Of a DNA stretch of 42,288 nt, positions 5,570 to 38,927 are shown piece by piece (the first letter of the stretch is position 1; every line of letters starts with the position of its first letter). Origin of the DNA: a virus (Duplodnaviria; Heunggongvirae; Uroviricota; Caudoviricetes); the IMG/VR virus record IMGVR_UViG_2778260993_000007, positions 1 through 42,288 of that record. One strand, given 5' to 3'. Under the pieces are notes generated by a model. That model was not told the DNA's origin. It saw only the letters and a program-made list of their open reading frames with translations, and ran no database searches. The translations under genes and the position numbers were made by a program.

Positions 5570-6154
5570 TTATTGTTTGTTTTTTTCGTTCTGGTTGATG
5601 ACAAATTCAATGTAACTTTCGATCTTTGCCTTCTCTGTTTCAGGTAACAATGCGTAGCGCGAGCGGTCATAGTTGATAGTTGCAGGGTCATGCGGATGAA
5701 TCAGTAGTTCATATCCGTGACGCCCGAATGCAGATGCAACATTCTCCAGGGTGGAAATGGAAACGCTGACCTCATTGTTTAACAGGCGGCTTATTGTCAC
5801 CTGGGCGACGCCGGATGCGCGGTGAAGTTTTCCCTGAGTTGAAAGGTCGCGGCTTTCACTCATCCAGCGTTCCAGGTTGTGAGCTGCCAGCTGACCAATG
5901 TCGCTTGGTCCGACAGGCTGAAAACCTTCCTGAGAAAGCGAGCGATCGATATCAAGCCAGTTACGGGGTTTATTGGCGGCAGCTTCGATTTTTCGCGCAA
6001 CCTGGTCGCCGATAACCTTCTTGCCAAGAGCCCAGCGGTTTACCAGATTTGCCTGAGTTCCAAGTTTTTCTGCCATCCGCGTCTGAACACCATTGAATTC
6101 ACGGTCGATCAAGTCGTTGAGATTTTGCCTGCGGACGTCCTGGATACTTTTCAT
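5570..6154 (-). CDS. Prophage repressor (CI-like), tandem HTH, no S24 autopeptidase domain
   Basis: 194 aa; N-terminal XRE-type HTH (QTRMAEKLGTQANLVNRWALGKK) and a second HTH-like segment; divergent from Cro-like gene with operator repeats between; no Ala-Gly/Ser-Lys peptidase motifs seen. Confidence 0.7.
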   Translation of the reverse strand: MKSIQDVRRQNLNDLIDREFNGVQTRMAEKLGTQANLVNRWALGKKVIGDQVARKIEAAANKPRNWLDIDRSLSQEGFQPVGPSDIGQLAAHNLERWMSESRDLSTQGKLHRASGVAQVTISRLLNNEVSVSISTLENVASAFGRHGYELLIHPHDPATINYDRSRYALLPETEKAKIESYIEFVINQNEKNKQ

Positions 6155-6586: not shown

Positions 6587-6595
6587 ATCTATTCT

Positions 6596-6689: not shown

Positions 6690-6890
6690 ATGGAAATCAT
6701 TACACGTATTGATGCCGCAAAGCGCGGACTTAAACGCTACTACACCGGAAAACCATGTAAGCACGGACATGACAGTGAACGCTGGGTTTACAACGGACAC
6801 TGTGTTGAGTGCACCATGGAATCAAACCGTCGCATCAGGGCAGAGATTAAGCAGATCATGATTAATTCCTCCCCACAACATTCAAGCTGA
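6690..6890 (+). CDS. Small zinc-ribbon protein (hypothetical)
   Basis: Start refined to MEIITRID; CxH...CxxC motif (CKHGHDSERWVYNGHCVEC). Confidence 0.4.
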   Translation: MEIITRIDAAKRGLKRYYTGKPCKHGHDSERWVYNGHCVECTMESNRRIRAEIKQIMINSSPQHSS

Positions 6891-15767: not shown

Positions 15768-15844
15768 TGGCGTGGCATGCAGGATTCGAACCTGCGACCA
15801 ACCGCTTAGAAGGCGATTGCTCTGTCCAACTGAGCTAATGCCAC
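15768..15844 (-). tRNA. tRNA-Arg (anticodon UCU)
   Basis: 77-nt cloverleaf on minus strand: acceptor GTGGCAT/ATGCCAC, D-arm GCTC...GAGC, anticodon loop CTTCTAA, T-arm GCAGGTTCGAATCCTGC, 3' GCCA; resembles but is not identical to E. coli argU. Confidence 0.8.
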
Positions 15845-25161: not shown

Positions 25162-27869
25162 TGCCTGTTGTTCCTACTACATCCGGACGCCAGGTGCAAA
25201 GTCGTGGTGTGCAAACCGGTGGTTTTCAGATCTTCGATGTTCCTCAAGCAGGTCAGGTGCTGGCGAATGTCGCAGATCAGTATGCGGTGGCATATGGTGA
25301 AGCCAGGCAGAAAGCGAATGTTGCATTGTCTCAGGATGCCATCCTTCAGCTTAATCAGCGCAGCAATGAACGTCTTTATAACCCTCAAACCGGTTTTTAT
25401 GCACAACAAGGCAAAAATGCGATTGGTAAGGGGCAAGAGTACATATCTGGATTTGATCAGGATGTGGAAGAAATAGCTGCTTCATTGACTGATGAAGCAG
25501 CAAGAAATATGTTTTTGCAACAAGCCAGAACACAGAAAATTCAGTTCAGTACTGGAGTTCTCAGACATGAGATAGGGCAGACAAATGCCTATGAAGATGA
25601 GCAATATCAGGCAACGAGAAAATTATGGATACAAAATGAAGCGGATGCCTGGAATGACCCGCAAACTGCCACTTTAGCCAGAAATTCCAGAATGGTAGCC
25701 ATTGCCAGATATGGAGCAGCCAGGGGATGGTCACAAGAACGCATTCTGGAAGAAATAGAAAGTGATGATCGCAGTGCCACAGAAATGCGGGCGAAGAATT
25801 ATGCCGCTGCTAATCCAGAAGGATGGCTAAATGGTCTGTTTCAGAAAAATGATTCTGGAGGCATGGACATGCGTGCCATACGCCTTGTTGAATCAGGTGA
25901 TCGACATTTTAATCCTGATGGTAGTCTTCTTGAAGGACCGATAACATCTTCTGGAGAGAGAGCCCAGGGGAAATACCAGTTAATGCCGGGCACAGGGAAA
26001 GAACTGGCGGCCAAGCGTGGCGTTGAATACAACCCTACGGACGAACAACAGCATGAAATGCTCGCCAGTGACTATGTAAATCAACTGTATGGTAAGTACG
26101 GCTCCGAAATATTGACCGGAGCAGCATATAACTGGGGGATGGGTAACGTGGATAAACTGATCGCCAAAGTCGGTGATCCGCGTAAAGGTGAAATATCAGA
26201 AGAAGAATTTATCCGAAATCTTCCATCAGAAACACAAGGGTGGCTTTCCCGATATAGAAAAAATAAAACTGGAATGGATCCGCTGACTATTTATCAAATA
26301 GATAACCTTGCTAATAGTCAGATAGAAAAGCAAAGGAAGTTAATATTAGAACAGCTTGAGCCAGCTATTAATAACACCATGGCCCAGCTATATAACGGTG
26401 AGGTTCCAGATTATATACCGGCTCAGGAGACTATCATCAGGGGGTATGGAAAAAATGCAGATAAAATAATCAATCAACTGGATATAGCGATTGATAACGC
26501 GAGAATATTCCAGGCAATTCAGTATTTACCTCCTTCTCAGCAGCAAGAAGAAATGCAGAAAGTGAAGCCTGAGGTTAACGATCCTCACTATGCGTTAAAA
26601 CTCGATGCTTACGGAAAATTGTCTGCATTGCTTCAGAGATCAAATGAAGCAATTCAGGCGCAACGGGATTCACGCAGATTCAATGAGGCGCTGACAATAG
26701 GTGAAAAATTAGACCCAAGCAACAAGTCAATGCAGAAAGCTGCTGATTACACAGAAATGGCGCAGAACTTTCGTATTAATGATGCCTCCACTCATGATGG
26801 GGTTGTTCGGCTTGTGGCTCAGACTGGCATAATGCCTTCGCAGGTCATCACGCAGCTTTCAGCAGTATCCCGATCCAGCAATCAGGAAGTGGTTAAAAAT
26901 GCGGCGGAACTGTTTAGTCGGTTATATGAAACAGACAATGCATCTATTGGAAATATGCCGAAGGATATGCAGGGTTTTTATCTGACTGTTAAGCAACTAA
27001 CTGATGCAGGGATGTCTTCAGATGCTGCTATTGTGGAAGCGCAGAGTAAGACATACAACCAGACAGATGCACTAAGGGCGCAGCTCTCATCTGTTCAGAG
27101 TACAAGAGAATACAAAAAAGAGCGTGACAGCGCAGCCAATTCTGCTGTCAGCAATATGGCTCATTGGCTTCGCTGGGATCCGTCTGCGGATGACCAGACG
27201 CCGGAAGCAGCGCTCTTTCGCAATGACTATCAGATGCTGTATGACGTTAACTATCGCCTTGCTGGTGGTAACGCTGACGTAGCGAAGCAAATGACCAACC
27301 AGCAGATAGCCCGCACCTGGAGTATCAGCGAGGTCAACGGGGAAGCACAGTTTATGAAATATGCACCGGAGGCGCTTTATCAATATGGGCCGTCAGGCTG
27401 GATTGCAGCGCAATGGAAAGCTGAAAAAGAAAAAATCATGTATGGCGATGACTTGCATAAACCAGCTCCTTCATTTAACCGACCTTCAACTGAGGCTGGT
27501 GCATTGGGACTGAATACACCACGCTCACTGGTTGGAGGTGAGTTGATTCTTGTTCCTGATTTATCAACTCCGAGAGATAAGCTTTATTCAGTTGTGATCA
27601 GAACAAAAGATAAAGATGGTATTACGAGGGATGATTTATTTTATGACAAGCATGGAAGACTGATGCGCTGGGGGCCATCACTAGAAGATTGGGAACCTTA
27701 TAAGAAAATGCAGCAGGAACGGGAGCAGCACGAGCAGGAAGAAATTATGCGTGGACAGGCTATACAAAACTTCAAAGACAAGCATCGTGCTCTGGATGAG
27801 CAGTATCAGCGCCTGCATAACGAACGTATGGACAAATTTAAAGATTACTTTTCGTGGGGATCTAAATAA
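25161..27869 (+). CDS. Internal virion (ejection) protein with lytic transglycosylase domain
   Basis: 902 aa; SLT-type motif region (ESGDRHFNPDG...AQGKYQLMPGT...YNWG). Confidence 0.65.
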   Translation: MPVVPTTSGRQVQSRGVQTGGFQIFDVPQAGQVLANVADQYAVAYGEARQKANVALSQDAILQLNQRSNERLYNPQTGFYAQQGKNAIGKGQEYISGFDQDVEEIAASLTDEAARNMFLQQARTQKIQFSTGVLRHEIGQTNAYEDEQYQATRKLWIQNEADAWNDPQTATLARNSRMVAIARYGAARGWSQERILEEIESDDRSATEMRAKNYAAANPEGWLNGLFQKNDSGGMDMRAIRLVESGDRHFNPDGSLLEGPITSSGERAQGKYQLMPGTGKELAAKRGVEYNPTDEQQHEMLASDYVNQLYGKYGSEILTGAAYNWGMGNVDKLIAKVGDPRKGEISEEEFIRNLPSETQGWLSRYRKNKTGMDPLTIYQIDNLANSQIEKQRKLILEQLEPAINNTMAQLYNGEVPDYIPAQETIIRGYGKNADKIINQLDIAIDNARIFQAIQYLPPSQQQEEMQKVKPEVNDPHYALKLDAYGKLSALLQRSNEAIQAQRDSRRFNEALTIGEKLDPSNKSMQKAADYTEMAQNFRINDASTHDGVVRLVAQTGIMPSQVITQLSAVSRSSNQEVVKNAAELFSRLYETDNASIGNMPKDMQGFYLTVKQLTDAGMSSDAAIVEAQSKTYNQTDALRAQLSSVQSTREYKKERDSAANSAVSNMAHWLRWDPSADDQTPEAALFRNDYQMLYDVNYRLAGGNADVAKQMTNQQIARTWSISEVNGEAQFMKYAPEALYQYGPSGWIAAQWKAEKEKIMYGDDLHKPAPSFNRPSTEAGALGLNTPRSLVGGELILVPDLSTPRDKLYSVVIRTKDKDGITRDDLFYDKHGRLMRWGPSLEDWEPYKKMQQEREQHEQEEIMRGQAIQNFKDKHRALDEQYQRLHNERMDKFKDYFSWGSK

Positions 27870-30800
27870 TGCCGTTCTATCCTGTATCTGAATCAAACAA
27901 TAACGGATTTATTTCTGCTGGTCGCGCCATTCCTGAACCTGATGAACAGAGTTTTGATGTGCATCCGCCAGAAGGTAAGAACCCTGAGCCTCGCCAAAAA
28001 GAGCCTTCATTGCTTGCCGCAGCAATACGACAGAACAATATTCTGGCTGGTTTTTTCCGTCCTGCCAGACAGTTTGAACCGGTCGAGGGTTATAACCCAT
28101 ATGCTGATAAAAATGAGTTGCACGGCTATGAATACTGGGGTGCGAAATTTGCAGGTTCCCGCTCGCCAGAAGAAACAGCGTGGATTAAGCAGCAGATAGA
28201 TGATGAAAATGAAGATCGGCGTTTTATCTCTGAAGCAGGCTTAGCTGGTGGAATTGCCAGTGCAACAGCGATGCTTTTTGACCCGGTTACTGTTGCGTCA
28301 ATGTTTATCCCAGGTGCTCAAGGAGGGGCACTGGCGCGTATTGGCTCACAGATTGCGATTGGTGCTGCCGGTACTGCATTAAGCGAGGTTGTACTGAATA
28401 ATCAGCAAATAACACGCTCATGGGGTGAAAGTGCCGCTCACGTTGCAGCGGGTGCGATAATGAGCGGCGTGTTTGCCAGTGCTGGTGTTGCGCTTTCGCC
28501 ATCTGTCCGGGCTGCAGCCACGCGTGAGGTTGCTGATGCTCTTGATAATATGAGCATTACATCAGCGACTGACAGGGCTGCCGCTTCGCTTTCTGATGGT
28601 GGTAGTGTTGGTGCTATGAAAATTGATACAGCGACTCTGGATGATTTAACCCCTGTTTCCGGTGGGCGGGTTGGAAAGGCTGCATGGAAAGCAGGGAGCT
28701 ATCTTACTCCTTTGACAAGGTTAATGGAGTCTCCGTCCAAGACGGTGCGAAAAACAACGCTGGAGTTAGCCGAAAATAATTTCACCCTTAAAGGAAATGA
28801 AAGGGGGATTGAAACACCGGTAGCTGTAGAAACCCGTACACGTGGATGGCAGCGTGAAGAAGCTGCTGTTGTTGTCGGAAATAAACAGGCATACGCAAAG
28901 TATAAAGCTGATGGTGGTGACATGAGTTTTGATTCATTTCGTCAGCAGGTTGGGAATGCTATGCGAAGCGGTGATGTGCATGCTAATCCTGTTGTTCAGG
29001 AAACGGCGCAGGCGATGCGAACTGTATTAAATCGGGTAAAAGTTGAAATGCAAAAGCTTGGTTTATTGCCGCCAGATGAAGAACTGAAAGCATTAGGCCA
29101 GGCAAGCTATTTCCCACGCATATATAAAGTTGGAAAAATAATCAGTGAACGCGATAAATTTCGACGCATTTTGGTTGACTGGTGGTCGAGAGGAAATAAA
29201 AAACTGGATCCTGAGGATGCTGAAATTGCAGCGGATATCGTAATTAATAAAATTACTGGTGCTAAGGTTCCACAGGATTTTGTCAGCGTATTTTCTGTAA
29301 AAGCCGCAGGTAGTACGAAAGAAAGAACATTAAATGTTCCTGATAGTCTTATCAGGGATTATCTTGAAAGTGATGTGAATTACGTGCTGCAACGTCATAT
29401 CCGTGAAGCGGCAGCAGAAATTGAGTTGACGAGAACATTTGGCAAACGAACTATGACTGAGCGTCTGCAATTAATTGAGGACGAATATGACAGTCTGTTA
29501 CGGGAAGTGCCTGAAAAAATAAAGGCGAAATATGACGAAAGTGTGGCAAATCTGAAAGCACGTTATGAGAGCAATGGTGAAGTTGTTCCTCAGGGTAAAC
29601 TCGATTCATTAATGCGAAAGTACGAAAAGGAATTACGGAAAGAACAGTCCAGACTTTCAAAATCAAGAGCAAATGATCTCAGAGACATAACAGCATTACG
29701 CGATCGTCTTGTTGGTACATATGGGATGCCTGATGATCCGTCTTCGTTTTTTGTTCGTGCTGGCGCTTTTCTGCGGGATGTGAACTTCACGACCAAACTC
29801 GGTGGAATGACAGTATCAGCTATTCCAGATCTGGCCAGAGGGGTTATGGTTAATGGTTTCCGTAACACCATGAAAGGCTATGCTTCTCAGATATCCCAAT
29901 CACCGGCATTTAAGGCCAGCAAAGAAGATATGTTGAAGATGGGGATTGGATTGGAAGCTGTACTACATTCACGTTCTCGTGCAATTGGTGATCTTGTTGA
30001 CAGTTCTTCCAGGACAACAGCAGTCGAAGCAGGAATGGAGCGAATTACTGATGCCTTCGGCAAGCTGACACTCATGGATCGATTTAATGACATAAACAAA
30101 TCCATGAACGGAATGCTCACGTCAGACGGTATTTTGTCTGGTGCGTTTTCTGCACGTCGCATGGCAAAACTCGGTATCAACGACAATATGGCTGCGCGTA
30201 TTCGCAGTGAGTTCGAGAAACATGGTGAGGTAATTGATGGATGGCACATTGGTAACTTTGATAAATGGGACGATCAGTACGTTGCCGGAGTATTCCAGTC
30301 AGCGGTTCTGAAAGACGTTAATAACACTATCATCACCCCCGGTATTGGTGACACACCTTTATGGGCGAGTACTCCAATGGGGCGAACGATATTTCAGTTT
30401 AAATCATTCACAACGGCTTCATACAACCGTGCGCTACTTGGTGGGTTACAGGAAGGAACTGCGCAATTTTATTATGGCACTGCATTTCAGATTGCTCTTG
30501 GCTCACTGGTCTATGCGCTTAAAGAAGCATCGAAAGGGAAAAATGTTGACTGGTCACCAGAGAAGCTGGTGCTTGAGGGTATAGATAGATCCGGTATTCT
30601 TGGGCCATTGATGGAATATAACAACATGGCTGAAAAGGCGACTGGTGGTGCTGTTGGGCTGGGGGCTTTATTTGGCACTGGCACACAGTCCAGGTATGCC
30701 AGTCGTGGATTCGTAGGATCTCTATTCGGACCGTCATTTGGTCTTGCGGATAGCATCATTGATGTGACCTCAGGAGTGTTGAATGGTGATGCCGGTGATC

Positions 30801-30892
30801 GTATTGTGCATAATGTCCGAACCCTGATACCCGGCAATAACCTGTTCTGGATTGCGCCACTAATAAACCAGGTGGATCCGGTGATGCGTTAA
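27869..30892 (+). CDS. Large internal virion / ejection protein (gp16-like)
   Basis: 1007 aa; size and position after the transglycosylase-containing protein. Confidence 0.6.
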   Translation: MPFYPVSESNNNGFISAGRAIPEPDEQSFDVHPPEGKNPEPRQKEPSLLAAAIRQNNILAGFFRPARQFEPVEGYNPYADKNELHGYEYWGAKFAGSRSPEETAWIKQQIDDENEDRRFISEAGLAGGIASATAMLFDPVTVASMFIPGAQGGALARIGSQIAIGAAGTALSEVVLNNQQITRSWGESAAHVAAGAIMSGVFASAGVALSPSVRAAATREVADALDNMSITSATDRAAASLSDGGSVGAMKIDTATLDDLTPVSGGRVGKAAWKAGSYLTPLTRLMESPSKTVRKTTLELAENNFTLKGNERGIETPVAVETRTRGWQREEAAVVVGNKQAYAKYKADGGDMSFDSFRQQVGNAMRSGDVHANPVVQETAQAMRTVLNRVKVEMQKLGLLPPDEELKALGQASYFPRIYKVGKIISERDKFRRILVDWWSRGNKKLDPEDAEIAADIVINKITGAKVPQDFVSVFSVKAAGSTKERTLNVPDSLIRDYLESDVNYVLQRHIREAAAEIELTRTFGKRTMTERLQLIEDEYDSLLREVPEKIKAKYDESVANLKARYESNGEVVPQGKLDSLMRKYEKELRKEQSRLSKSRANDLRDITALRDRLVGTYGMPDDPSSFFVRAGAFLRDVNFTTKLGGMTVSAIPDLARGVMVNGFRNTMKGYASQISQSPAFKASKEDMLKMGIGLEAVLHSRSRAIGDLVDSSSRTTAVEAGMERITDAFGKLTLMDRFNDINKSMNGMLTSDGILSGAFSARRMAKLGINDNMAARIRSEFEKHGEVIDGWHIGNFDKWDDQYVAGVFQSAVLKDVNNTIITPGIGDTPLWASTPMGRTIFQFKSFTTASYNRALLGGLQEGTAQFYYGTAFQIALGSLVYALKEASKGKNVDWSPEKLVLEGIDRSGILGPLMEYNNMAEKATGGAVGLGALFGTGTQSRYASRGFVGSLFGPSFGLADSIIDVTSGVLNGDAGDRIVHNVRTLIPGNNLFWIAPLINQVDPVMR

Positions 30893-30913
30893 TCAATATT
30901 TATTGGAGTTCTT

Positions 30914-31441
30914 TCAATGGCTGTTTATGGCTTCTAAAGAATCTTCTGCACTTATCGGCAAAGCAATAGCATCCTTGTTAGATGTGCTATTGCTTTCCAG
31001 AACGATGGAAATCCAATCCTCTTGGTTTTTATTAATTGTGCTGACAGCCATGATAGCATTCAAATCGTTTTTATATATTTCTGATCGAATAAGACCTTTC
31101 CTGAATAATTTAGTTAAGCTTTCCGCTATCGACATCGCACGAATGCTAACTTTACTAAGCTCAATGACGTCACTACCTGCGACTTTAGCGTGTTGAGAAA
31201 GAGCCATCAAAGCTATATGCGAAAATGTTTCTTCTTTTGAAAAACCATTACTTAAAGACAGGAGTGATACACTAGCTCCGTATGGGGTGAGCTTATATCC
31301 TGATACATTCAATGCATGCTCTACAAAGATAAGAGCATCAGTTGTAGAAGCATGGATATTGTTACTTTTTTGTTTTTTCGCAATAAATAAAAAAACAAAA
31401 TTAATAATTACGATGCCGACAATGATTAAGAAAACTTCCAT
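30914..31441 (-). CDS. Membrane-anchored hypothetical protein (accessory)
   Basis: 175 aa; N-terminal TM helix MEVFLIIVGIVIINFVFLFIA; AT-rich; promoter, operator and first codons duplicated in inverted orientation at 35151..35200. Confidence 0.6.
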   Translation of the reverse strand: MEVFLIIVGIVIINFVFLFIAKKQKSNNIHASTTDALIFVEHALNVSGYKLTPYGASVSLLSLSNGFSKEETFSHIALMALSQHAKVAGSDVIELSKVSIRAMSIAESLTKLFRKGLIRSEIYKNDLNAIMAVSTINKNQEDWISIVLESNSTSNKDAIALPISAEDSLEAINSH

Positions 31442-31481
31442 TGCTTTTCCTCACAATAACATTACCTTAAAGGTAATATTT
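31432..31481. repeat. Inverted repeat IR-1, left copy
   Basis: About 50 bp (operator, promoter, RBS, ATGGAAGTTTTCT) is the reverse complement of 35151..35200. Confidence 0.7.
31462..31476. promoter_or_regulatory. Operator-like site upstream of membrane protein gene 30914..31441
   Basis: TTACC-TTAAA-GGTAA; part of 50-bp inverted repeat shared with 35151..35200. Confidence 0.5.
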
Positions 31482-31501
31482 TGTGTTAATGTAATCAAGT
31501 G

Positions 31502-31900
31502 TTAAGTGTAAACCTCCTGCTGTTCAGTGGTGATTTTACCCGGCAACACCTTTTTAGCTTTGCGTGGGTTAACTACATGGCCTTTAGTCCAGTAATCGTA
31601 GAGCACATCGTCACACTCTTCCTGATACTGGATTACCTTGTCGCGGATTTCAGGGCGTACTTTGTTTGGACTGATGCTGTTCAACCAAGCTGCCAATTTT
31701 CGTAAAGCCATACAAATCATGGCTTGCACCCCACCGGCAGAAGGTATGGTGATTTCCACCATACCCTTCGAGAAGCGTTGAGAAATCTTCTTATGTTGAG
31801 ATTTCCAGTCTAGCCCCATTCCCTCAACGATAGGTTTCATTGGGGTATACGGTTCACCGTTGTGATTGACAACATAAAGATCTGCGCCGTGGAATGGCAC
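31502..31900 (-). CDS. Putative antirepressor-like protein (P22-antirepressor N-terminal-like domain)
   Basis: 132 aa; segment GEPYTPMKPIVEGMGLDWKSQ...GGVQAM resembles N-terminal domains of phage antirepressors; weak RBS, start uncertain. Confidence 0.45.
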   Translation of the reverse strand: MPFHGADLYVVNHNGEPYTPMKPIVEGMGLDWKSQHKKISQRFSKGMVEITIPSAGGVQAMICMALRKLAAWLNSISPNKVRPEIRDKVIQYQEECDDVLYDYWTKGHVVNPRKAKKVLPGKITTEQQEVYT

Positions 31901-31994
31901 GTTGATAATAGTGACAAATTTGAAACATCGCTGGTTGTAAGCCAGCAGATGCTCGTTATTTTACATCGCGGTACAATTTCTCGCTGGTGGCTCT

Positions 31995-32328
31995 TTTACA
32001 CACCTTAACCAAATACGGTTGATTTTAATATTTCTAAGCGCTTATCATTACCTTTTCGGTAAATTTACATCGCATTCCTCTTGTGCCATAGTAATCGGGC
32101 ACTGGCAAAATCCAGTGCCGGGATTGGTCTCCCGGATTACTACAGAGGCACATATGCCGCATAAGCGGTTTTTTTATGTGTAAAGCGCACCTATTCTATG
32201 GTGGGCTGTGTGGGGGCACCGAAAGGTGCGCCGGGTCCTTTGTAGCCGGTAAGACCAACTCTGCACAGTTCACCACCATCTGATTGGTCTCAGCGGTGGT
32301 GATTAACCTAACTACAAAGGTGATCGCC
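31995..32328. repeat. Inverted repeat IR-2, left copy (antirepressor leader)
   Basis: About 330 bp, roughly 85-90 percent identical to the reverse complement of 34790..35125. Confidence 0.65.
32048..32062. promoter_or_regulatory. Operator-like site in leader of BRO-type antirepressor gene
   Basis: TTACC-TTTTC-GGTAA adjacent to putative -35 TTTACA. Confidence 0.5.
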
Positions 32329-33021
32329 ATGAATACCAAACCTTCCATCTTTTCCTTTGAGTCATCCTGCCAGATCCGTATGTTCATGATTGACGGAGAA
32401 CCTTGGTTTGTCACCAAAGATGTGTGCAATGCTTTGAATATTGATGTTACACAAGCGAGAAAACTTGATAAAAAAGGCTGGAACAAAAAGGGGCTGTATT
32501 CAATACAGACCCCTGGTGGAATACAAGAACTATCCATCGTTTCAGAATCAGGTCTCTACATCCTTATTCTGCGTTGCAAAGAGGCAATGACTGAGGGAAC
32601 GAGAGCATTCAGATTTCTTGAATGGGTTACAGGTGAGGTTCTTCCTCAGATCCGCCGCACCGGAAGTTACATTAAAAACTCGCTCCCGCAGGAAGAACGC
32701 ATAAAGATGGTTGCCGACCAGGTAGCCAACGCCACGGCGTCAGCAGTAATGCAGGCGATGAAGATAGAGAACAAAACCTACAGCGCCCCGCTGAAGCCCG
32801 GCTACCGCAGTTTGATTCACTCGCCGTCTGGTGTTCTCGGCCTGACGGAGAACTCACTGCTGATGAATCTGCTGAACCAGTTACAGGAAGACGGGCACGA
32901 CGTATCGGGCGCGGCGGCGGAGCTGACCACCATGTTCTGCTACATCGTCGGTGTGAGCAAATGCCTGCGTGATATCCAGACGCACGCGGAGTACATCAAC
33001 GACAAGGCAGGGTTCTTCTGA
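32329..33021 (+). CDS. Antirepressor, BRO-N domain plus shared C-terminal domain
   Basis: Start refined to MNTKPSIF (AAGGTGA RBS); BRO-N-like N-terminus (FMIDGEPWFVTKDVCNALN...GEVLPQIRRTGSY); C-terminal about 80 aa identical to C-terminus of 34133..34789. Confidence 0.7.
   Translation: MNTKPSIFSFESSCQIRMFMIDGEPWFVTKDVCNALNIDVTQARKLDKKGWNKKGLYSIQTPGGIQELSIVSESGLYILILRCKEAMTEGTRAFRFLEWVTGEVLPQIRRTGSYIKNSLPQEERIKMVADQVANATASAVMQAMKIENKTYSAPLKPGYRSLIHSPSGVLGLTENSLLMNLLNQLQEDGHDVSGAAAELTTMFCYIVGVSKCLRDIQTHAEYINDKAGFF
32770..33021. repeat. Inverted repeat IR-3, left copy (shared antirepressor C-domain coding region)
   Basis: About 250 bp nearly identical to reverse complement of 34133..34385; the few differences seen are synonymous. 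Confidence 0.7.
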
Positions 33022-33059
33022 CAGAACGGCGGCACAGGGATGTGCAAAACGGAACTATC

Positions 33060-33071
33060 GTGACATGTCAC
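33060..33071. repeat. 12-bp perfect palindrome GTGACATGTCAC (copy 3 of 3)
   Basis: Exact 12-mer between BRO-type antirepressor stop and its terminator. Confidence 0.6.
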
Positions 33072-33096
33072 AGGCCGCTTTCGCGGCCTTGTTTTT
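33072..33096 (+). terminator. Terminator after BRO-type antirepressor gene
   Basis: AGGCCGC-TTTC-GCGGCCT followed by TGTTTTT. Confidence 0.65.
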
Positions 33097-33256
33097 AACG
33101 AATGCCACCGCCGCCCGGGCTGGAATCCGCAGAACGCCCACCGCAGCGGGAGCCGTCAGCGGCAGTATCGCTGTCGTGCTGACAACGACCGGCAAAGGCC
33201 TGAGTTGAAGCTACCAGAGACAACAAAACGAACAGTGCAGCAAATGCTTTTTTCAT
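33095..33256 (-). CDS. Possible small secreted peptide
   Basis: Signal-peptide-like N-terminus MKKAFAALFVLLSLVASTQAFA; but Gly/Ser-rich remainder overlaps a GC-rich terminator region; may be non-coding. Confidence 0.2.
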   Translation of the reverse strand: MKKAFAALFVLLSLVASTQAFAGRCQHDSDTAADGSRCGGRSADSSPGGGGIR

Positions 33257-33325
33257 TGTGAAATTTCCATCTATAAGCCACCTCAATGTGGCGTCAATGA
33301 GTGTAGTACTGACTTTTGTTTCGTC

Positions 33326-33351
33326 CACAAAAAAGCCCGCGCTGCGGGCTT
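33326..33351 (-). terminator. Terminator after gene 33355..33987
   Basis: Minus-strand AGCCCGC-AGC-GCGGGCT followed by TTTTTTG directly after stop codon. Confidence 0.7.
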
Positions 33352-33354
33352 CTG

Positions 33355-33987
33355 TTAATGCAGTTTATCTTTGCTTATAACCAGTAGTCTGTGGGTATGC
33401 ACATCTTTATCACTGCCCCAACAGAAATCAGCCCACTGGCTATAGAAATCATCCCATGATGTCATGAAGCTAAGAGGTCTATCTTCTTCAGAGCCATCTG
33501 AAACGTATACATTATATCCTGGGGTGTTTATAGCCCAAGAAATCATTCTTTCCCAGAATCTTCTCCCATCGATTGTTTGTTGCTCATCAGATACAACGAT
33601 CGCATATTGCTCTAGGAAGAACTGAAAAAAAATCTGAGGCAAACCATGAACAGCACGGTCATGAATAACATTAGGCGTACGCCATACCATGATCTGCGTA
33701 CATGTTCTTTTGGCTTCGACGATATCTTCCCGAAAGATTAACTTAACCGCATACACCGTTTCTGGAGTATCGCTGGTAGTAATCATTCTGTAATGATCGC
33801 CATTACAAGATTTTACAAGGCGATAACCATAAGGTGTTGTGAATCCCGGAAGAACGAAATCAACCACACCTTTCGCTAAGTAGCTTTCGGTGTGACTAGT
33901 GTTCTTCTCAGACATGTTCAGTTTTCTATCGAAATCTGCTTCTGGGATAATGTATGGCATCGCTTTTCTTGTTGTATTTGTTCTCAT
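33355..33987 (-). CDS. Hypothetical protein at centre of antirepressor island
   Basis: 210 aa; own operator-like site upstream (about 34047..34061) and strong terminator directly after stop; no recognised domain. Confidence 0.55.
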   Translation of the reverse strand: MRTNTTRKAMPYIIPEADFDRKLNMSEKNTSHTESYLAKGVVDFVLPGFTTPYGYRLVKSCNGDHYRMITTSDTPETVYAVKLIFREDIVEAKRTCTQIMVWRTPNVIHDRAVHGLPQIFFQFFLEQYAIVVSDEQQTIDGRRFWERMISWAINTPGYNVYVSDGSEEDRPLSFMTSWDDFYSQWADFCWGSDKDVHTHRLLVISKDKLH

Positions 33988-34046
33988 TTCGTCCTCCCAT
34001 GTTTGGCTACAGGACGCGTTTTGAAGGGAAGATTAAAAATGCTTTC

Positions 34047-34061
34047 TTACCCTTGAGGTAA
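34047..34061. promoter_or_regulatory. Operator-like site upstream of gene 33355..33987
   Basis: TTACC-CTTGA-GGTAA in the 145-bp gap between AntA-type gene stop and next start. Confidence 0.5.
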
Positions 34062-34132
34062 TAGTACGCTATTCACCCCCAGTCTGCAATCTGTACAGAA
34101 TTATTTAAAGGCACGTCCCTGTGCCGCCGCCG

Positions 34133-34385
34133 TCAGAAGAACCCTGCCTTGTCGTTGATGTATTCCGCGTGCGTCTGGATATCACGCAGGCATTTGCTCA
34201 CACCAACGATGTAGCAAAACATGGTTGTCAGCTCCGCCGCCGCGCCCGATACATCGTGCCCGTCTTCCTGCAACTGGTTCAGCAAATTCATCAGCAGTGA
34301 GTTCTCCGTCAGGCCGAGAACACCAGACGGCGAATGAATCAGGCTACGGTAGCCGGGCTTCAGTGGGGCGCTGTATTCTTTTTTG
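34133..34385. repeat. Inverted repeat IR-3, right copy
   Basis: See left copy. Confidence 0.7.
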
Positions 34386-34789
34386 TCTTCCAGCTTGATC
34401 GCCTCCATAATGGCGGGCATGAAGCCTGACAAGACCTTCTCCACTTTTGTTTCTTGTTGTCTTAAACGTTTCTCGCATTCAATGAAGTAGCGTCGCACCT
34501 GGCGACCTTTTTCGTTACGCTCGACCATCGCCAGCTCTTTGGCTGTATCAAGGGTGAGGTGGTACTCTTTGCGGTTGTGGCCGCCTCTACCAGATGTTTG
34601 CTTTCCCAAATTGGAAAGCAAAATATAGTCTTGATTTTCAATGAATTCGTATTCTGATATGCGATTTGTAATCCATGCTGCAAACACCTTTTTAACACCT
34701 AAAAAAGCGTGCAGATCGCGGGCATTACAAAGTAGGGCTGTTTCGTTAGATATAGTGCCGTTGAATACGGGGATGAGTTGAGCGTTCAT
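34133..34789 (-). CDS. Antirepressor, AntA/AntB-type N-terminal domain plus shared C-terminal domain
   Basis: 218 aa; AntA-like N-terminus ([34 protein letters not shown]); C-terminal domain identical in protein sequence to that of 32329..33021. Confidence 0.7.
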
Positions 34790-35125
34790 GATGGCGTCTC
34801 CACTTAGCGAATTACATCACCACCGCTGAGACCAATCAGATGGTGGTGAACTGAACGGAGTTGGTCTTACCGGCCTAAGTGGTACCGGCGTCCTTTCGGA
34901 CCCCCATTCAGCCCACCATAATTCTGGCATGACTGTGCTATACGCATAAAAAAACCACGTCTGGCGTGGTATGCGCCACTTAGTAATCCGGGAGACCAAT
35001 CCCGGCACTGGATTTTGCCAGTGCCCGATTACTATGGCACAAGAGGAGTGCAATGTAAATTTACCGCAAAGGTAATGATAAACGCGAAGAAATATTAAAA
35101 TCAACCGTATTTGGTTGATTGCGTT
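34790..35125. repeat. Inverted repeat IR-2, right copy (antirepressor leader)
   Basis: See left copy; ends at the AntA-type gene start codon. Confidence 0.65.
35061..35075. promoter_or_regulatory. Operator-like site in leader of AntA-type antirepressor gene
   Basis: TTACC-GCAAA-GGTAA; inverted counterpart of the site at 32048. Confidence 0.5.
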
Positions 35126-35150
35126 TAACGCTTGATCACCTGAAAGCAAG

Positions 35151-35200
35151 ATATTACCTTTAAGGTAATGTTATTGTGAGGAAAAGCAATGGAAGTTTTC
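35151..35200. repeat. Inverted repeat IR-1, right copy
   Basis: Reverse complement of 31432..31481 by direct comparison. Confidence 0.7.
35154..35168. promoter_or_regulatory. Operator-like site upstream of membrane/zinc-ribbon gene 35189
   Basis: TTACC-TTTAA-GGTAA, 21 bp before start codon. Confidence 0.5.
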
Positions 35201-35917
35201 TGGATAGTTGTTGGTGTGGTTGCGGTGATTATTTACGTTATCAACCAGAACAAGACTAAGATCTCTGATCGTACGGTCGTTAATTATAACAAAACGATAA
35301 AGACCGAAGATGGGGAGATAACGATTAATCGTACACAGGTGATAGAACACACCTCTACTCAGTTTCAAAAAACTGGAGGTAATGCGCCTAATATTTCCGC
35401 ACCTCCTGCTTATGATAGTGCGGTAATCCAGACATATTATAAACAGCAGGAGTTAGCAAAAGAGAGGCAACTGATTCAGCCAAAGCCGTTTACAGCTGAG
35501 CTTCCACCTGGAGTGTCAATGCGTCCGGCATATCATGGAAGATTCCCTGGTGATGACATATCGTCTCAGTCATCTAAAAAAGCACCTCAGGCAGTATCAG
35601 AGCCAGCAAGAATACCTTCTGTATCGCCGCCAAAAGAAGAATCAGCTAACAGAGTTTCAAGTGGTAGCAAGCAGTGCTTGCGATGCAGAATAAACCTACC
35701 ATATGAAAAATTCAGGAAATCGTCAAAAAATCCAGATGGATTGACTAAGTGGTGTGCAAGGTGTCTCGATGGCCCAAAGAATACACGCCATATGAAGTGG
35801 TGCCCAATTTGTAATGTCCGCAGAAAACGAACAAGCTTTTACCCTAATAATCAAAATGCGGATGGCTTAATGGCATGGTGCAAAACGTGCTGGGACGAGC
35901 ACAAAGCGAAACGATAG
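35189..35917 (+). CDS. Membrane-anchored protein with tandem C-terminal zinc-ribbon repeats
   Basis: 242 aa; N-terminal TM helix MEVFWIVVGVVAVIIYVI; two about 35-aa repeats each with CxxC...DGL..WCxxC. Confidence 0.6.
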   Translation: MEVFWIVVGVVAVIIYVINQNKTKISDRTVVNYNKTIKTEDGEITINRTQVIEHTSTQFQKTGGNAPNISAPPAYDSAVIQTYYKQQELAKERQLIQPKPFTAELPPGVSMRPAYHGRFPGDDISSQSSKKAPQAVSEPARIPSVSPPKEESANRVSSGSKQCLRCRINLPYEKFRKSSKNPDGLTKWCARCLDGPKNTRHMKWCPICNVRRKRTSFYPNNQNADGLMAWCKTCWDEHKAKR

Positions 35918-35939
35918 GCCGCTCTTGCGGCCTTTAAAT

Positions 35940-36197
35940 TTACCGGGTTTGTTTTCGTAATTGTTCGGCACAATAGTCGAGATGTGTTTGCAGATCCCGC
36001 ATAGACATCTGTGAGCTGGTGACGTAGTTAATCAGTGCAGTCAGTTCGGCAAGTGGGCCATCGACATTAAATCCATCCTTATCGAGCTCCCGGAGTAATT
36101 TCATCAAGTGCGATCCCTCCACCAGTGATCTGACGCCTCCCGGCGTGTGAATCCTTTCGGTAAATCCGTCTTCCAGTGGATAGTGATACTGCTGCAT
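35940..36197 (-). CDS. Small protein homologous to the antirepressor C-terminal domain (candidate SOS-induced antirepressor)
   Basis: About 85 aa from ATG with GGAGAAG RBS (track ORF extends to 36215); aligns with the shared antirepressor C-domain (TPGGVRSLVEGSHLMKLLRELDKDGFNVDGPLAELT...MRDLQTHLDY); LexA box immediately upstream. Confidence 0.6.
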   Translation of the reverse strand: MQQYHYPLEDGFTERIHTPGGVRSLVEGSHLMKLLRELDKDGFNVDGPLAELTALINYVTSSQMSMRDLQTHLDYCAEQLRKQTR

Positions 36198-36218
36198 CTT
36201 ATCTTCTCCATGCAATAA

Positions 36219-36234
36219 CTGTATAAATATACAG
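36219..36234. promoter_or_regulatory. LexA (SOS) box
   Basis: aaCTGTataaatatACAGta: CTGT-N8-ACAG with AT-rich spacer matching the enterobacterial LexA consensus TACTGTATATATATACAGTA at most positions; about 22 bp upstream of start of minus-strand gene 35940..36197. Confidence 0.65.
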
Positions 36235-36273
36235 TATCAAATAATTTATTTGCTATCCAGCACGTTTTGCGAA

Positions 36274-36288
36274 TCACCTGAAAGGTAA
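36274..36288. promoter_or_regulatory. Operator-like site TCACC-TGAAA-GGTAA upstream of tail fiber gene
   Basis: 9/10 match; in divergent intergenic region between LexA-box gene and tail fiber gene. Confidence 0.45.
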
Positions 36289-36392
36289 TATCTGTTCGTA
36301 TTTATGGGTTGTCTATCCATATATGGTTTTTCAGGTAATAGAATAACCGGATATGCGGCGCAACGGGTGCTGCGACTATCTGGAGATTTAAC

Positions 36393-38927
36393 ATGACGGT
36401 CTCAACCGAAGTTGACCACAACGAATACACCGGTAACGGTGTTACAACGACATTCCCTTATACCTTCAGGATTTTCCAGAAATCTGATTTAGTAGTGCAG
36501 GTTGTTGACCTGAACGAGAACATCACAGAGCTGATTCTTGATACTGATTACATAGTCACTGGTGCGGGAGGGTATAACGGCGGCAATGTAATTCTGTCGA
36601 AGGCGTTGGTTAACGGTTATCAGATTTCTATATCAAGAGAGCTACCGGTTACGCAGGATACCGATCTGCGCAACCAGGGTAAGTTCTTCGCTGAGGTGCA
36701 TGAAGACGCATTCGATAAACTGACGATGCTGATACAGCAGGTTAGAAGTTGGTTCAGGTTGGCTCTGCGTAAACCATCATTTATTGCTAATTATTATGAT
36801 GCTTTGAACAATTATATTCGTAACCTGAGAGATCCCAGATTTCCGCAGGATGCGGCAACAAAAAATTACGTGGATACGCTTGCTGGTAGCAATCTAAGCA
36901 AAACTCTTCGCGTTCCTGAATCAATACCTTCCTTACCTGATGCTATTGAAAGAGCAAACAAGATGGTTGCTTTTGATAATGATGGTAATCCATTTGTCGT
37001 ATTACCACCATCTGGATCTGCCTCAGACGTTCTAATTGAATTAGCTAAACCTGATGGGTATAAGTTAATTGGTGGATTAGAAAACAGATTATATATATAT
37101 GATATAAGCGCACTAGACGGTGAGCGGAATAGTGATCAGCTTAATGCTATATTTTATAAGTATAAAGATACACCAATAAAAATATACTCAAGCGTGCCAC
37201 TAACTTTCACCATAGATAAAGAAACACATCTATATGGTGATTTTGATTTGAGTAATTGTACTTTCCACTTAACAAACGGAAAGGTTGTGTATAAAGATGA
37301 AAGGGATGATGATAGTTATATAAAGGAAGTTAATATATCAACATACCCATTGAACGAATTAACCTCAGTTTTTTCTTGTGTTGAGGATTTAACAGGGTGG
37401 GGTAATTCGCTCGTCAAAATAATAAGTCCAACAGAGGTTGATCTCTATAGGTTGCTTGGTGGTGTATTCACCCCAAGATATAAAGGTGAAGTGAACTTTA
37501 TGACTAAGTCAGGGGAATTGGCTTACAGTCTTAAAAATACTTACAACGACCCCGTAACTTGTACGTTATTTAAGCTACCAACTAAGCGTAATAAAATTGT
37601 ATTGCCGCGTTTCACTGGTCAATTTTCACGCTATGCTTTTGATATCCAACGTTCTTTAGTTGATGTTGAGGTTGTTTACTTTAATGACATGGGGATGACA
37701 GCTACAGATTCTAATATTTTTGGTAGCTCTACCACCTACGGAGTTAACTGGAGATTAACGAGTGCGGGTATTACGCAGACGGATAATAATTCTCGTTATA
37801 CCGTAGCTATGGAGTACACCCTTAAACATACTTTTATCGGCTGCGAAGTGGGTAAGGGGTGGAGGTCTATTGACGGCAACTATTGCAGGGATGTGGTTGT
37901 GAGAGACAGTAATCTTGATAGCTTCCACATGCACTATGGGTGCTCAAAGATTCTTGTTGATAATTGCCGGATACCTGGAGGCGTCATGGTTGGTACTGGG
38001 GCGTTCGACGAGGCCACACAGATCATCAATTCTCACATAGGGCCGTTTGGAGTACGTACGGATTACGGTGAACATAAAGGTGATTTCATAGTCCGTGGGG
38101 GATCCGTTCGTATTCCAGAGGGTTCATCCGGTTTGGTGGATATGATTTTGTGTCGTCCAGACAATGTTATCGCGTCTGGGAATCCTGTTCAGCCGCGCAC
38201 TTTACATCTTCCGAAGAATATAATTGTACAGACGAATATATACTGGCCTTCTGAGGTAACACTCAATATTTTATCATTTAAAAATAACTTTAAAACACAG
38301 CCATCACCTTTGCGTGACTTTAAAATGCCGTCATTGATAGATTTTACTGGTAGCACTTTTAATGGTAAAGCCGCAAGATTTGAGTTGGCAATTTCATATC
38401 ATGATGCATCTACAAGAGATATTCCTGTAATTAAATTGACTCCAGCTAAATCAACTGGATGTAAAGTTGTATGTTATGTTGGATACCTGGATGAGTATGC
38501 ATCATGCCTTTATGGTCTTGAGAGCAATATGGATATTGCATATATGAATATCACATCAGGAATGAATAGGAGTTACATCAAGCATGATGGTGGTGTATTA
38601 CGTAGGTTTGTAGGCTATTCTGGTGGAAACACATATATGCTTGGCAGTGTTTATTTTGACAAAATGGCCATAGATTGGGATGTGAGTAACAACCTTGTTT
38701 CAGGATTTATGTCAGTGTCTGACTGTCTTATAGATGGTTCGAGAGCTAAGGGATCATCTTCATCTAAGCCGATAGTAAATACGTATGTACATAGGTCGGC
38801 AAATAATATATGTCATGAGATAGTGGCAACTGACTCAAGGGATGTTGTCGATAAAAAATATGCCCTTTGCAGTAGAGAGGGAACCGCAGGGAACTTCTCA
38901 ACAGGTGAGATACCTATAACATTTTAA
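36393..38927 (+). CDS. Tail fiber / tailspike protein (T7 gp17-like N-terminal adaptor, divergent C-terminal receptor-binding region)
   Basis: 844 aa; N-terminus (EVDHNEYTGNGVTTTFPYTF) resembles podovirus tail-fiber N-terminal domain; C-terminal two-thirds AT-rich. Confidence 0.75.
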   Translation: MTVSTEVDHNEYTGNGVTTTFPYTFRIFQKSDLVVQVVDLNENITELILDTDYIVTGAGGYNGGNVILSKALVNGYQISISRELPVTQDTDLRNQGKFFAEVHEDAFDKLTMLIQQVRSWFRLALRKPSFIANYYDALNNYIRNLRDPRFPQDAATKNYVDTLAGSNLSKTLRVPESIPSLPDAIERANKMVAFDNDGNPFVVLPPSGSASDVLIELAKPDGYKLIGGLENRLYIYDISALDGERNSDQLNAIFYKYKDTPIKIYSSVPLTFTIDKETHLYGDFDLSNCTFHLTNGKVVYKDERDDDSYIKEVNISTYPLNELTSVFSCVEDLTGWGNSLVKIISPTEVDLYRLLGGVFTPRYKGEVNFMTKSGELAYSLKNTYNDPVTCTLFKLPTKRNKIVLPRFTGQFSRYAFDIQRSLVDVEVVYFNDMGMTATDSNIFGSSTTYGVNWRLTSAGITQTDNNSRYTVAMEYTLKHTFIGCEVGKGWRSIDGNYCRDVVVRDSNLDSFHMHYGCSKILVDNCRIPGGVMVGTGAFDEATQIINSHIGPFGVRTDYGEHKGDFIVRGGSVRIPEGSSGLVDMILCRPDNVIASGNPVQPRTLHLPKNIIVQTNIYWPSEVTLNILSFKNNFKTQPSPLRDFKMPSLIDFTGSTFNGKAARFELAISYHDASTRDIPVIKLTPAKSTGCKVVCYVGYLDEYASCLYGLESNMDIAYMNITSGMNRSYIKHDGGVLRRFVGYSGGNTYMLGSVYFDKMAIDWDVSNNLVSGFMSVSDCLIDGSRAKGSSSSKPIVNTYVHRSANNICHEIVATDSRDVVDKKYALCSREGTAGNFSTGEIPITF

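Follow-up and report, generated by a model that had tools for sequence, protein, structure and literature searches.

The stretch of DNA analyzed here, called the window, is the whole of IMG/VR virus record IMGVR_UViG_2778260993_000007, 42,288 nucleotides (nt) in length. It is an epsilon15/phiV10-like (Uetakevirus-like) Escherichia coli prophage, and its top phage match is TL-2011b (95.8%). Between its last internal-virion gene and its tailspike gene lie two genes for uncharacterised membrane proteins. Judged from sequence and predicted fold, the two proteins are not paralogues; they share instead a cassette that carries a promoter, an operator and the start of the gene, and the operator is assigned with good grounds to the phage’s own master repressor, Rep. 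The features concerned are the following:

30914 to 31441, minus strand: gene for a 175-amino acid (aa) protein, phrog_21690 over its full length, with a signal-anchor and an acidic all-helical domain
35189 to 35917, plus strand: gene for a 242-aa protein of the family called TM-Zn here, phrog_6762, with an anchor, a beta-hairpin, a proline/serine-rich tether and a tandem zinc ribbon
31416 to 31505, minus strand: cassette copy A, with -35 TTGATT, a 17-bp spacer, -10 TACCTT, a Rep operator (31460-31476), the Shine-Dalgarno sequence GAGGA and the first codons
35125 to 35214, plus strand: cassette copy B, with -35 TTGATC (35132-35137), -10 TACCTT (35155-35160), a Shine-Dalgarno sequence and the first codons
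5570 to 6154, minus strand: gene for Rep, the master repressor, a 194-aa helix-turn-helix protein (match to 5D50_A, the SPC32H repressor, 4e-42)

The initial annotation had described an upstream module common to both genes, and this module is real. It is an inverted repeat, I3 (31416-31505 and 35125-35214), of 90 nt at 87% identity, with a core of 51 identical nt; in an anchored comparison, 38 of these lie upstream and the rest is ATGGAAGTTTTCT. The cassette spans the promoter, a palindrome and the ribosome-binding site as well as the first four codons, and DNA identity ends at codon 5. Both open reading frames (ORFs) that had been reported, 30914-31441 on the minus strand and 35189-35917 on the plus strand, exist and are conserved (PHROGs 21690 and 6762). 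The arrangement is not an assembly artefact, since the complete E. coli chromosomes CE0007a and MS8345 also carry it, covering 82-88% of positions 30500-36500. In the RefSeq annotation of CE0007a, both membrane-protein ORFs are hypothetical proteins and are arranged as in the window.

The earlier observation was nonetheless overstated, in that it took a shared regulatory and start cassette for paralogy. BLASTP aligns just MEVF.I between the two proteins (E=2.7), they fall into separate PHROGs, and their predicted folds differ, with a beta-hairpin, disorder and zinc ribbons in the 242-aa protein and an all-alpha structure in the 175-aa protein. The N-terminus that they were said to share amounts to the four codons within the cassette (MEVF.I), and the remaining likeness is that of two hydrophobic anchors. 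As the sequences indicate, the shared 5' cassette has been spread by recombination. P0044, a diverged gene of the helical (175-aa) family, encodes 168 aa, starts with MEIFWVVVGVIL and is found in the same slot in L128, another epsilon15-like prophage. Upstream of it is that lineage’s version of the cassette, with the palindrome TGTGACATGTCAC, TTGATT-17-TACCTT and ATTACCTTTTAGGTAAT, a version otherwise found before Citrobacter-type TM-Zn genes. Because P0044 also carries the cassette, at least two lineages have it in front of both protein families.

The 175-aa gene was first considered to be a simple chimera with its start borrowed from the 242-aa gene. That view was weakened because other helical-family members, as in contig L131, natively start with ME and hydrophobic residues behind unrelated upstream DNA. 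The helical-family gene of this epsilon15-like contig (L131, 3309-3848) is itself split into ORFs of 76 aa and 102 aa, probably by a frameshift or a stop.

One could also consider the shared N-terminus as true common descent of a functional transmembrane (TM) module that was shuffled onto different effectors. The pattern ME[IV]F[WL][IV][IV]VG[IV] is seen in both families, P0044 starts with MEIFWVVVGV like the TM-Zn proteins, and Gly9 is invariant in the alignments of both. However, many signal-anchors start with ME and a run of hydrophobic residues, identity of the window’s DNA does not extend past the fourth codon, and other helical-family anchors differ (MNIPQERFTG..., MKIFLIII..., MTTFWVIALL...), so common descent of the anchor is rated as distinctly unlikely. 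Scans for a third family behind the cassette covered IMG/VR (using the cassette in strict form, the operator alone and the degenerate motif ME[IV]FW[IV]VVGV) and GTDB genomes, and found none; the degenerate N-terminal scan gave only the two families and presumably chance matches in Gordonia, which also counts against a common module. So far, therefore, the idea of one anchor with many effectors extends to two families only.

The operator is the part of the cassette that can be tied to a known regulator. Both cassette operators (31460-31476 and 35153-35169, the latter being ATTACCTTTAAGGTAAT) are perfect 8-1-8 palindromes that match the repressor-site consensus of epsilon15. With one mismatch allowed, TTACC-N5-GGTAA is present in 18 copies in the window compared to the 0.68 expected, and in an unbiased count of all 5-N5-5 palindromes TTACC leads with 13 exact copies, the runner-up having 2. 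The RefSeq record of epsilon15 (NC_004775.2) holds seven dispersed “protein_bind: repressor” features, all of them ATTACC-N5-GGTAAT; having already been annotated there, the operator is a known regulatory element of this phage group and not a new one. The Rep of the window is 100% identical to phiV10 ORF40, and the sequence of ORF21 of phage ZX5 is stated to be the same as phiV10 ORF40 (PMC9782041). Overexpression of this ORF21 lowers lytic-gene transcripts by more than 99.9% (PMC9782041). The palindrome enrichment, the epsilon15 annotation, the identity of Rep and the repression by ZX5 ORF21 make the assignment of the cassette palindrome as an epsilon15/SPC32H-type Rep operator a well-grounded one.

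Rep operators flank the repressor gene (5436, 5498, 6210 and 6258) and precede most transcription units, namely those for replication, terminase, portal and holin, the isrK promoters, the cargo and ant genes described below, and both membrane-protein genes. The master repressor appears to repress late operons directly, in the manner of P1 C1. The dispersed sites span 5436-39339 and are also found at 6595, 8517, 8579, 13007, 13025, 16166 and 39083, some of them (8579, 13025) merely 2-3 nt from a start codon. The site at 6595 is followed by the gene for a 66-aa early protein (6690-6890, plus strand), a homologue of epsilon15 gp40 and phiV10p42 with a zinc-ribbon-like motif, GKPCKHGH...NGHCVEC.

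Upstream regions of TM-Zn genes were compared among E. coli, the Citrobacter/Enterobacter type (L133, L139, L143, L153), L137, L140, Providencia (L120) and Serratia (L122/L154). The diverged regions have little in common except a -35 of TTGAyy, a 17-bp spacer and a -10 of TACCTT, TAACCT or TACATT, and TTGAyy-17-TACCTT is the predicted conserved sigma-70 promoter. In phages with the TTACC operator, the -10 lies inside the left operator half-site; in the Providencia phage, a TTAACC-N5-GGTTAA palindrome takes the same position on the promoter. Just upstream of the cassette -35 in Citrobacter/Enterobacter-type phages (L128 at about 5925-5940; L133, L143, L156) there is another, conserved palindrome, TGTGACATGTCACA, which is LexA-box-like (TTGT-N8-ACAG) and imperfect.

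Since the Rep operator overlaps the conserved sigma-70 promoter, the prediction is that both genes are silent in the lysogen and become expressed upon induction or infection. From the position of the operator, bound Rep should occlude the promoter. Each gene has three marks expected of an epsilon15-type Rep regulon member: a consensus operator, the cognate Rep in the genome, and overlap of the operator with the predicted promoter. There is good support, at the level of regulatory sequence, for placing both genes in the Rep regulon, to be switched on together with the antirepressors, and both proteins are probably made only in the lytic phase and not in the resident prophage.

The 242-aa protein is anchored by residues 2-22, which are followed by K/R residues and then by a conserved juxtamembrane beta-hairpin (about residues 29-52). 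Next comes a disordered tether of about 100 aa, variable in length and modeled with low confidence, in which 26 of 98 residues are P or S. The tandem zinc ribbon (about residues 160-242) is modeled with a predicted local distance difference test (pLDDT) score of about 90; it is basic, with an isoelectric point (pI) of 9.9 and 20 K/R against 6 D/E. It holds two CxxC...DG..WCxxC repeats with exactly 8 Cys, and none of the eight varies among 18 homologues, which reach down to about 40% identity. The Pro/Ser-rich linker and the two zinc-ribbon-like repeats of the initial annotation are borne out in this way. Full-length homologues, to about 40% identity, are found in Escherichia, Citrobacter, Enterobacter, Salmonella, Serratia, Providencia, Pectobacterium and Buttiauxella, and 129 of 5426 complete E. 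coli genomes (about 2.4%) encode the protein; epsilon15 and phiV10 lack the gene. The ribbons are similar to modules at the N-terminus of phage endonuclease VII/HNH PHROGs (2e-11 to 1e-9), as well as the Lar-like family phrog_5558. Pfam Stc1 (PF12898) matches them in two stretches at E=9e-5 with 23.4 bits, just under the gathering score of 24.8. A nuclease domain is absent. A PDB sequence search with the family returned nothing but a marginal match to the N-terminal zinc site of PacI (E=0.17), and a Foldseek search of PDB with the whole model was uninformative, as most of that model is disordered.

An N-terminal anchor, a long flexible linker, a basic domain akin to the zinc ribbons of phage nucleases and a predicted early expression could together describe a membrane tether like phi29 p16.7, an early protein that would bind replicating or incoming phage DNA with its basic zinc ribbons and organize it at the membrane. 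This is very unlikely for the 242-aa protein. The gene is the first in only 5 of the 80 slot loci surveyed below and is missing from epsilon15 and phiV10; being carried by only some epsilon15-like phages, it does not encode a core replication function. Also, Stc1-type zinc fingers can mediate protein contacts.

The 175-aa protein has the signal-anchor MEVFLIIVGIVIINFVFLFIA, followed by KKQK. Its AlphaFold 2 model is all-alpha (pLDDT 95.8), and the TM helix runs on into a compact helical domain; the pI is 5.7. The gene is AT-rich, as had been noticed (35.6% GC compared to 48% for the window), and the protein is found in 6 of the 5426 E. coli genomes. A profile search gathered 122 representative clusters with the helical domain, which may be stand-alone (soluble), TM-anchored or C-terminal to other unnamed domains. 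On these data the domain is an undescribed family of about 120 clusters: over the clusters, Pfam gave no match except one weak MarR, the PDB held no sequence relative, and a fold search gave only generic helical-bundle matches. Relatives lie in accessory regions of mobile elements, near P4-like genes, ArdC/AbiE and RES-Xre. For neither full-length protein was anything found in Pfam, NCBIfam or PADLOC. Profile searches and structure prediction, which the initial annotation had proposed, thus brought out the zinc-ribbon kinship and the all-alpha domain. For both proteins, the positive-inside rule predicts a short N-terminus outside and a cytoplasmic C-terminal domain. The earlier description of them as membrane-anchored accessory proteins, each behind a promoter and operator of its own, is supported.

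The cassette forms one of the joints in a larger inverted duplication (repeats I1-I4), which had been overlooked earlier. The duplicated unit is immI-like and runs from a promoter through isrK and the C4 antisense RNA to an antirepressor gene, in two inverted copies. Both membrane-protein genes are present in the window because this isrK-C4-antirepressor module was duplicated in inverted orientation. From one border of the accessory slot to the other, the remaining features are:

27869 to 30892: last internal-virion gene (phrog_342/16310), one border of the slot
31502 to 31900, minus strand: truncated P22/CUS-3-type antirepressor, N-terminal domain only (132 aa; PF10547 P22_AR_N, 9.7e-45)
32019 to 32063, plus strand: isrK promoter A, TTGATT-18-TATCAT, with a Rep operator (32047-32063) at -10/+1
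32099 to 32175 and 32194 to 32280, plus strand: module A RNAs, isrK (Rfam RF01394, 74.7 bits) and C4 antisense (RF01695, 74 bits)
32329 to 33021, plus strand: Bro-N::Ant fusion antirepressor of module A (PF02498)
33095 to 33987, minus strand: cargo genes between the two large ant genes, with their own Rep operator (34047-34061)
34133 to 34789, minus strand: AntA::Ant fusion antirepressor of module B (PF08346)
34839 to 34923 and 34948 to 35024, minus strand: module B RNAs, C4 and isrK, and their promoter with a Rep operator (35060-35076)
35940 to 36197, minus strand: small stand-alone Ant, orthologue of SPC32H Ant and epsilon15 gp19 (5D50_E, 5.5e-47; phrog_450)
36219 to 36289, minus strand: ant control region, with a LexA-box consensus match CTGTATAAATATACAG (36219-36234) and a Rep operator (36273-36289)
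36393 to 38927: tailspike gene, the other border of the slot

The isrK copies score 74.7 and 67.7 bits and the C4 copies 74 and 61.2 bits, all above the Rfam gathering scores. The C-termini of the two large antirepressors (32766-33022 and 34132-34388) are 93% identical in DNA (repeat I1), and their N-terminal domains differ; residues 137-213 of the AntA-type protein match SPC32H Ant (5D50_E, 4.6e-14). In copy A, the ant fragment (31502-31900) sits between the cassette and the isrK promoter. It is 97% identical to the CUS-3 ant, and its counterpart in CE0007a is annotated as a pseudogene without the C-terminus. Together with the small ant gene, which is convergent to the 242-aa gene, the region holds three Ant-domain genes and the truncated P22-type fragment. 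A GC-rich terminator-like hairpin (35916-35933) lies between the two convergent genes. The LexA-box match CTGTATAAATATACAG is 22 nt upstream of the small ant and close to the Rep operator, and dual LexA/Rep control of the SPC32H-type antirepressor is therefore implied.

A hairpin, AATCAACCAAATACGGTTGATT (35099-35120 and 32003-32024), overlaps the -35 of each isrK promoter and is kept in many IMG/VR relatives. The cargo genes encode a membrane-associated protein of 77/53 aa (phrog_3117/14503) and a 210-aa protein (phrog_1349); CE0007a and TL-2011b have different genes at this position, the TL-2011b set including a YafO-family toxin. In the epsilon15-like contig L131, a match to Rfam sRNA-Xcc1 lies upstream of the neighboring Bro-N gene, the usual position of isrK/C4. 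Elsewhere in the prophage, a tRNA gene (15771-15844, minus strand; Rfam RF00005, 70 bits) is found between an Sf6 gene 66-like gene and the portal region.

The company of so many antirepressors raises the question of whether both proteins modulate the immunity switch as membrane-tethered anti-repressors or anti-antirepressors, by sequestering at the membrane Rep, Ant, LexA or some heterologous repressor. Antirepressor genes surround them in epsilon15-like phages, the ant operons are under the same operator control, and in Providencia a TM-Zn gene follows an ant gene in tandem. Such a role is highly improbable all the same: neither protein resembles the Ant, Bro-N, AntA or P22_AR_N domains, TM-Zn genes in Serratia and Buttiauxella occur without any ant gene, and a shared variable slot explains the co-location equally well.

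This slot was surveyed in 80 IMG/VR loci, with the C-terminal end of the last internal-virion protein as the anchor. The first gene after it is of more than 15 different kinds: a 113-aa protein (21 loci), a 196-aa TM protein of the TL-2011b gp39 type (13), TM-Zn (5), the 175-aa helical protein (4) and the small Ant (3), with several signal-peptide proteins among the others. The slot is a hypervariable accessory locus whose position is equivalent to that of sieA-immI in P22, and the 242-aa and 175-aa genes are alternative occupants of it in epsilon15/phiV10-like prophages. The immI-like surroundings proposed in the initial annotation were found to be correct, given the isrK and C4 RNAs, the antirepressors and the position.

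The same cannot be said for the role proposed there, that of morons expressed in the lysogen for superinfection exclusion or abortive infection (Abi), like SieA beside P22 immI. The position fits, as does a slot rich in membrane and secreted proteins. The AT-rich 175-aa gene, the genes’ own promoters and the terminator-like hairpin after the 242-aa gene are further points for such morons, as is the finding of helical-family relatives near toxin–antitoxin and Abi genes in other mobile elements. Still, a perfect Rep operator overlaps the -10, and the domains are predicted to be cytoplasmic, a compartment that suits zinc-binding cysteines. No PADLOC-DB 2.0 model matched either protein or the neighboring genes at E<=1, and no Pfam or PHROG match to described exclusion families (SieA, SieB, Imm, Sie2009, Cor and others) was found at E<=0.01. 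Because Rep-operator control predicts repression in the lysogen and support from homology is absent, a lysogen-protective role is considered unlikely. Exclusion activity during lytic growth may nevertheless be compatible with Rep control.

The best explanation as a whole is that these are unrelated single-pass inner-membrane proteins, expressed from a Rep-controlled cassette, with a binding role at the membrane in the lytic phase; we hold this to be somewhat more probable than not. Rep on its operator would block the -10/+1 region and keep both genes silent in the lysogen. Inactivation of Rep by SOS or Ant, or a fresh infection, would then turn both on together with the antirepressors and the lytic genes. 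Each protein might bind a partner at the cytoplasmic face of the membrane, a step proposed with low confidence: the 242-aa protein could grip nucleic acid or protein with its basic tandem zinc ribbon, held on about 100 aa of flexible tether, and the 175-aa protein could offer its acidic helical domain for protein interaction. The likely purpose would be to aid lytic development, for example by shutting out competing DNA or by tying up a factor of the host or the phage. That both are membrane-localised binding factors of the lytic phase is a best guess, likewise of low confidence.

Several points weigh against this explanation. A single operator per gene could be leaky and allow expression in the lysogen, and the copy A gene might also be read through from the promoter of the ant fragment. 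TM-Zn homologues in phages of other immunity (Serratia L122, the L134 group) have no TTACC palindrome, so not every member of the family is under Rep control. The zinc-ribbon likeness is confined to a small generic module and stays below the Pfam gathering score, and the helical domain has no fold or sequence relative of known function in the searches made. A bolder version would be a swappable “anchor-and-effector” locus, in which a Rep-controlled promoter, operator and signal-anchor are recombined onto alternative cytoplasmic effectors, as a new class of lytic-phase membrane-tethered capture factors. Their targets at the inner membrane may be nucleic acid, incoming or competing, or else a host or defence protein. 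This version is speculative, and we think it quite improbable.

If the two genes do belong to the repressor regulon, they are not lysogenic-conversion genes, and their role is to be shown in induced or infected cells rather than in resting lysogens. A function for either protein would annotate many “hypothetical proteins,” given the spread of the 242-aa family across Enterobacterales prophages and the roughly 120 clusters of the helical one. The locus is also a clear, datable case of mosaic recombination at a regulatory cassette within an immunity region.

The architecture of the two uncharacterised proteins matches no described class of accessory protein, and each known system resembles it only in part. 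Stc1 (PF12898), the endonuclease VII/HNH ribbons (phrog_1035, 2633 and 2255) and the Lar-like phrog_5558 have the same two CxxC...CxxC units with the F...DG...WCxxC signature; the module of the 242-aa protein differs in being membrane-tethered and comes with no nuclease domain. The p16.7 protein of phi29 is a membrane-anchored early DNA-binding protein. In architecture alone, the 242-aa protein would be similar to it, with an N-terminal anchor, a cytoplasmic C-terminal domain that is putatively nucleic acid-binding and a predicted early expression. It differs in having a tandem zinc ribbon on a disordered tether and in being an accessory rather than a core gene; no family search gave any homology to p16.7, which was itself not compared directly.

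P22 SieA is likewise an accessory protein of the inner membrane; its gene lies between those for the ejection proteins and the tailspike and adjoins an antirepressor region. SieA is made in the lysogen. The proteins of the window have no sequence similarity to it, and each is predicted to combine a single anchor with a large cytoplasmic domain behind a promoter that bears the operator of the master repressor. The immI of P1/P7 (c4 antisense RNA-icd-ant) and isrK-anrP of Gifsy-1 are similar to the present region in that isrK and C4 precede each large antirepressor and the promoter bears the operator of the master repressor. In contrast to them, the window has two inverted copies, ant genes with differing N-terminal domains and no icd, and its membrane-protein genes are without counterpart there. 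The closest in regulation is the epsilon15-like Rep-Ant system (SPC32H, PDB 5D50), which has the same operator consensus, orthologous Rep and small Ant proteins, and a LexA-box match before ant. The system as described is without the two membrane-protein genes, which epsilon15 and phiV10 lack, and in the window, Bro-N and AntA fusions of the Ant domain also occur behind isrK-C4 leaders.

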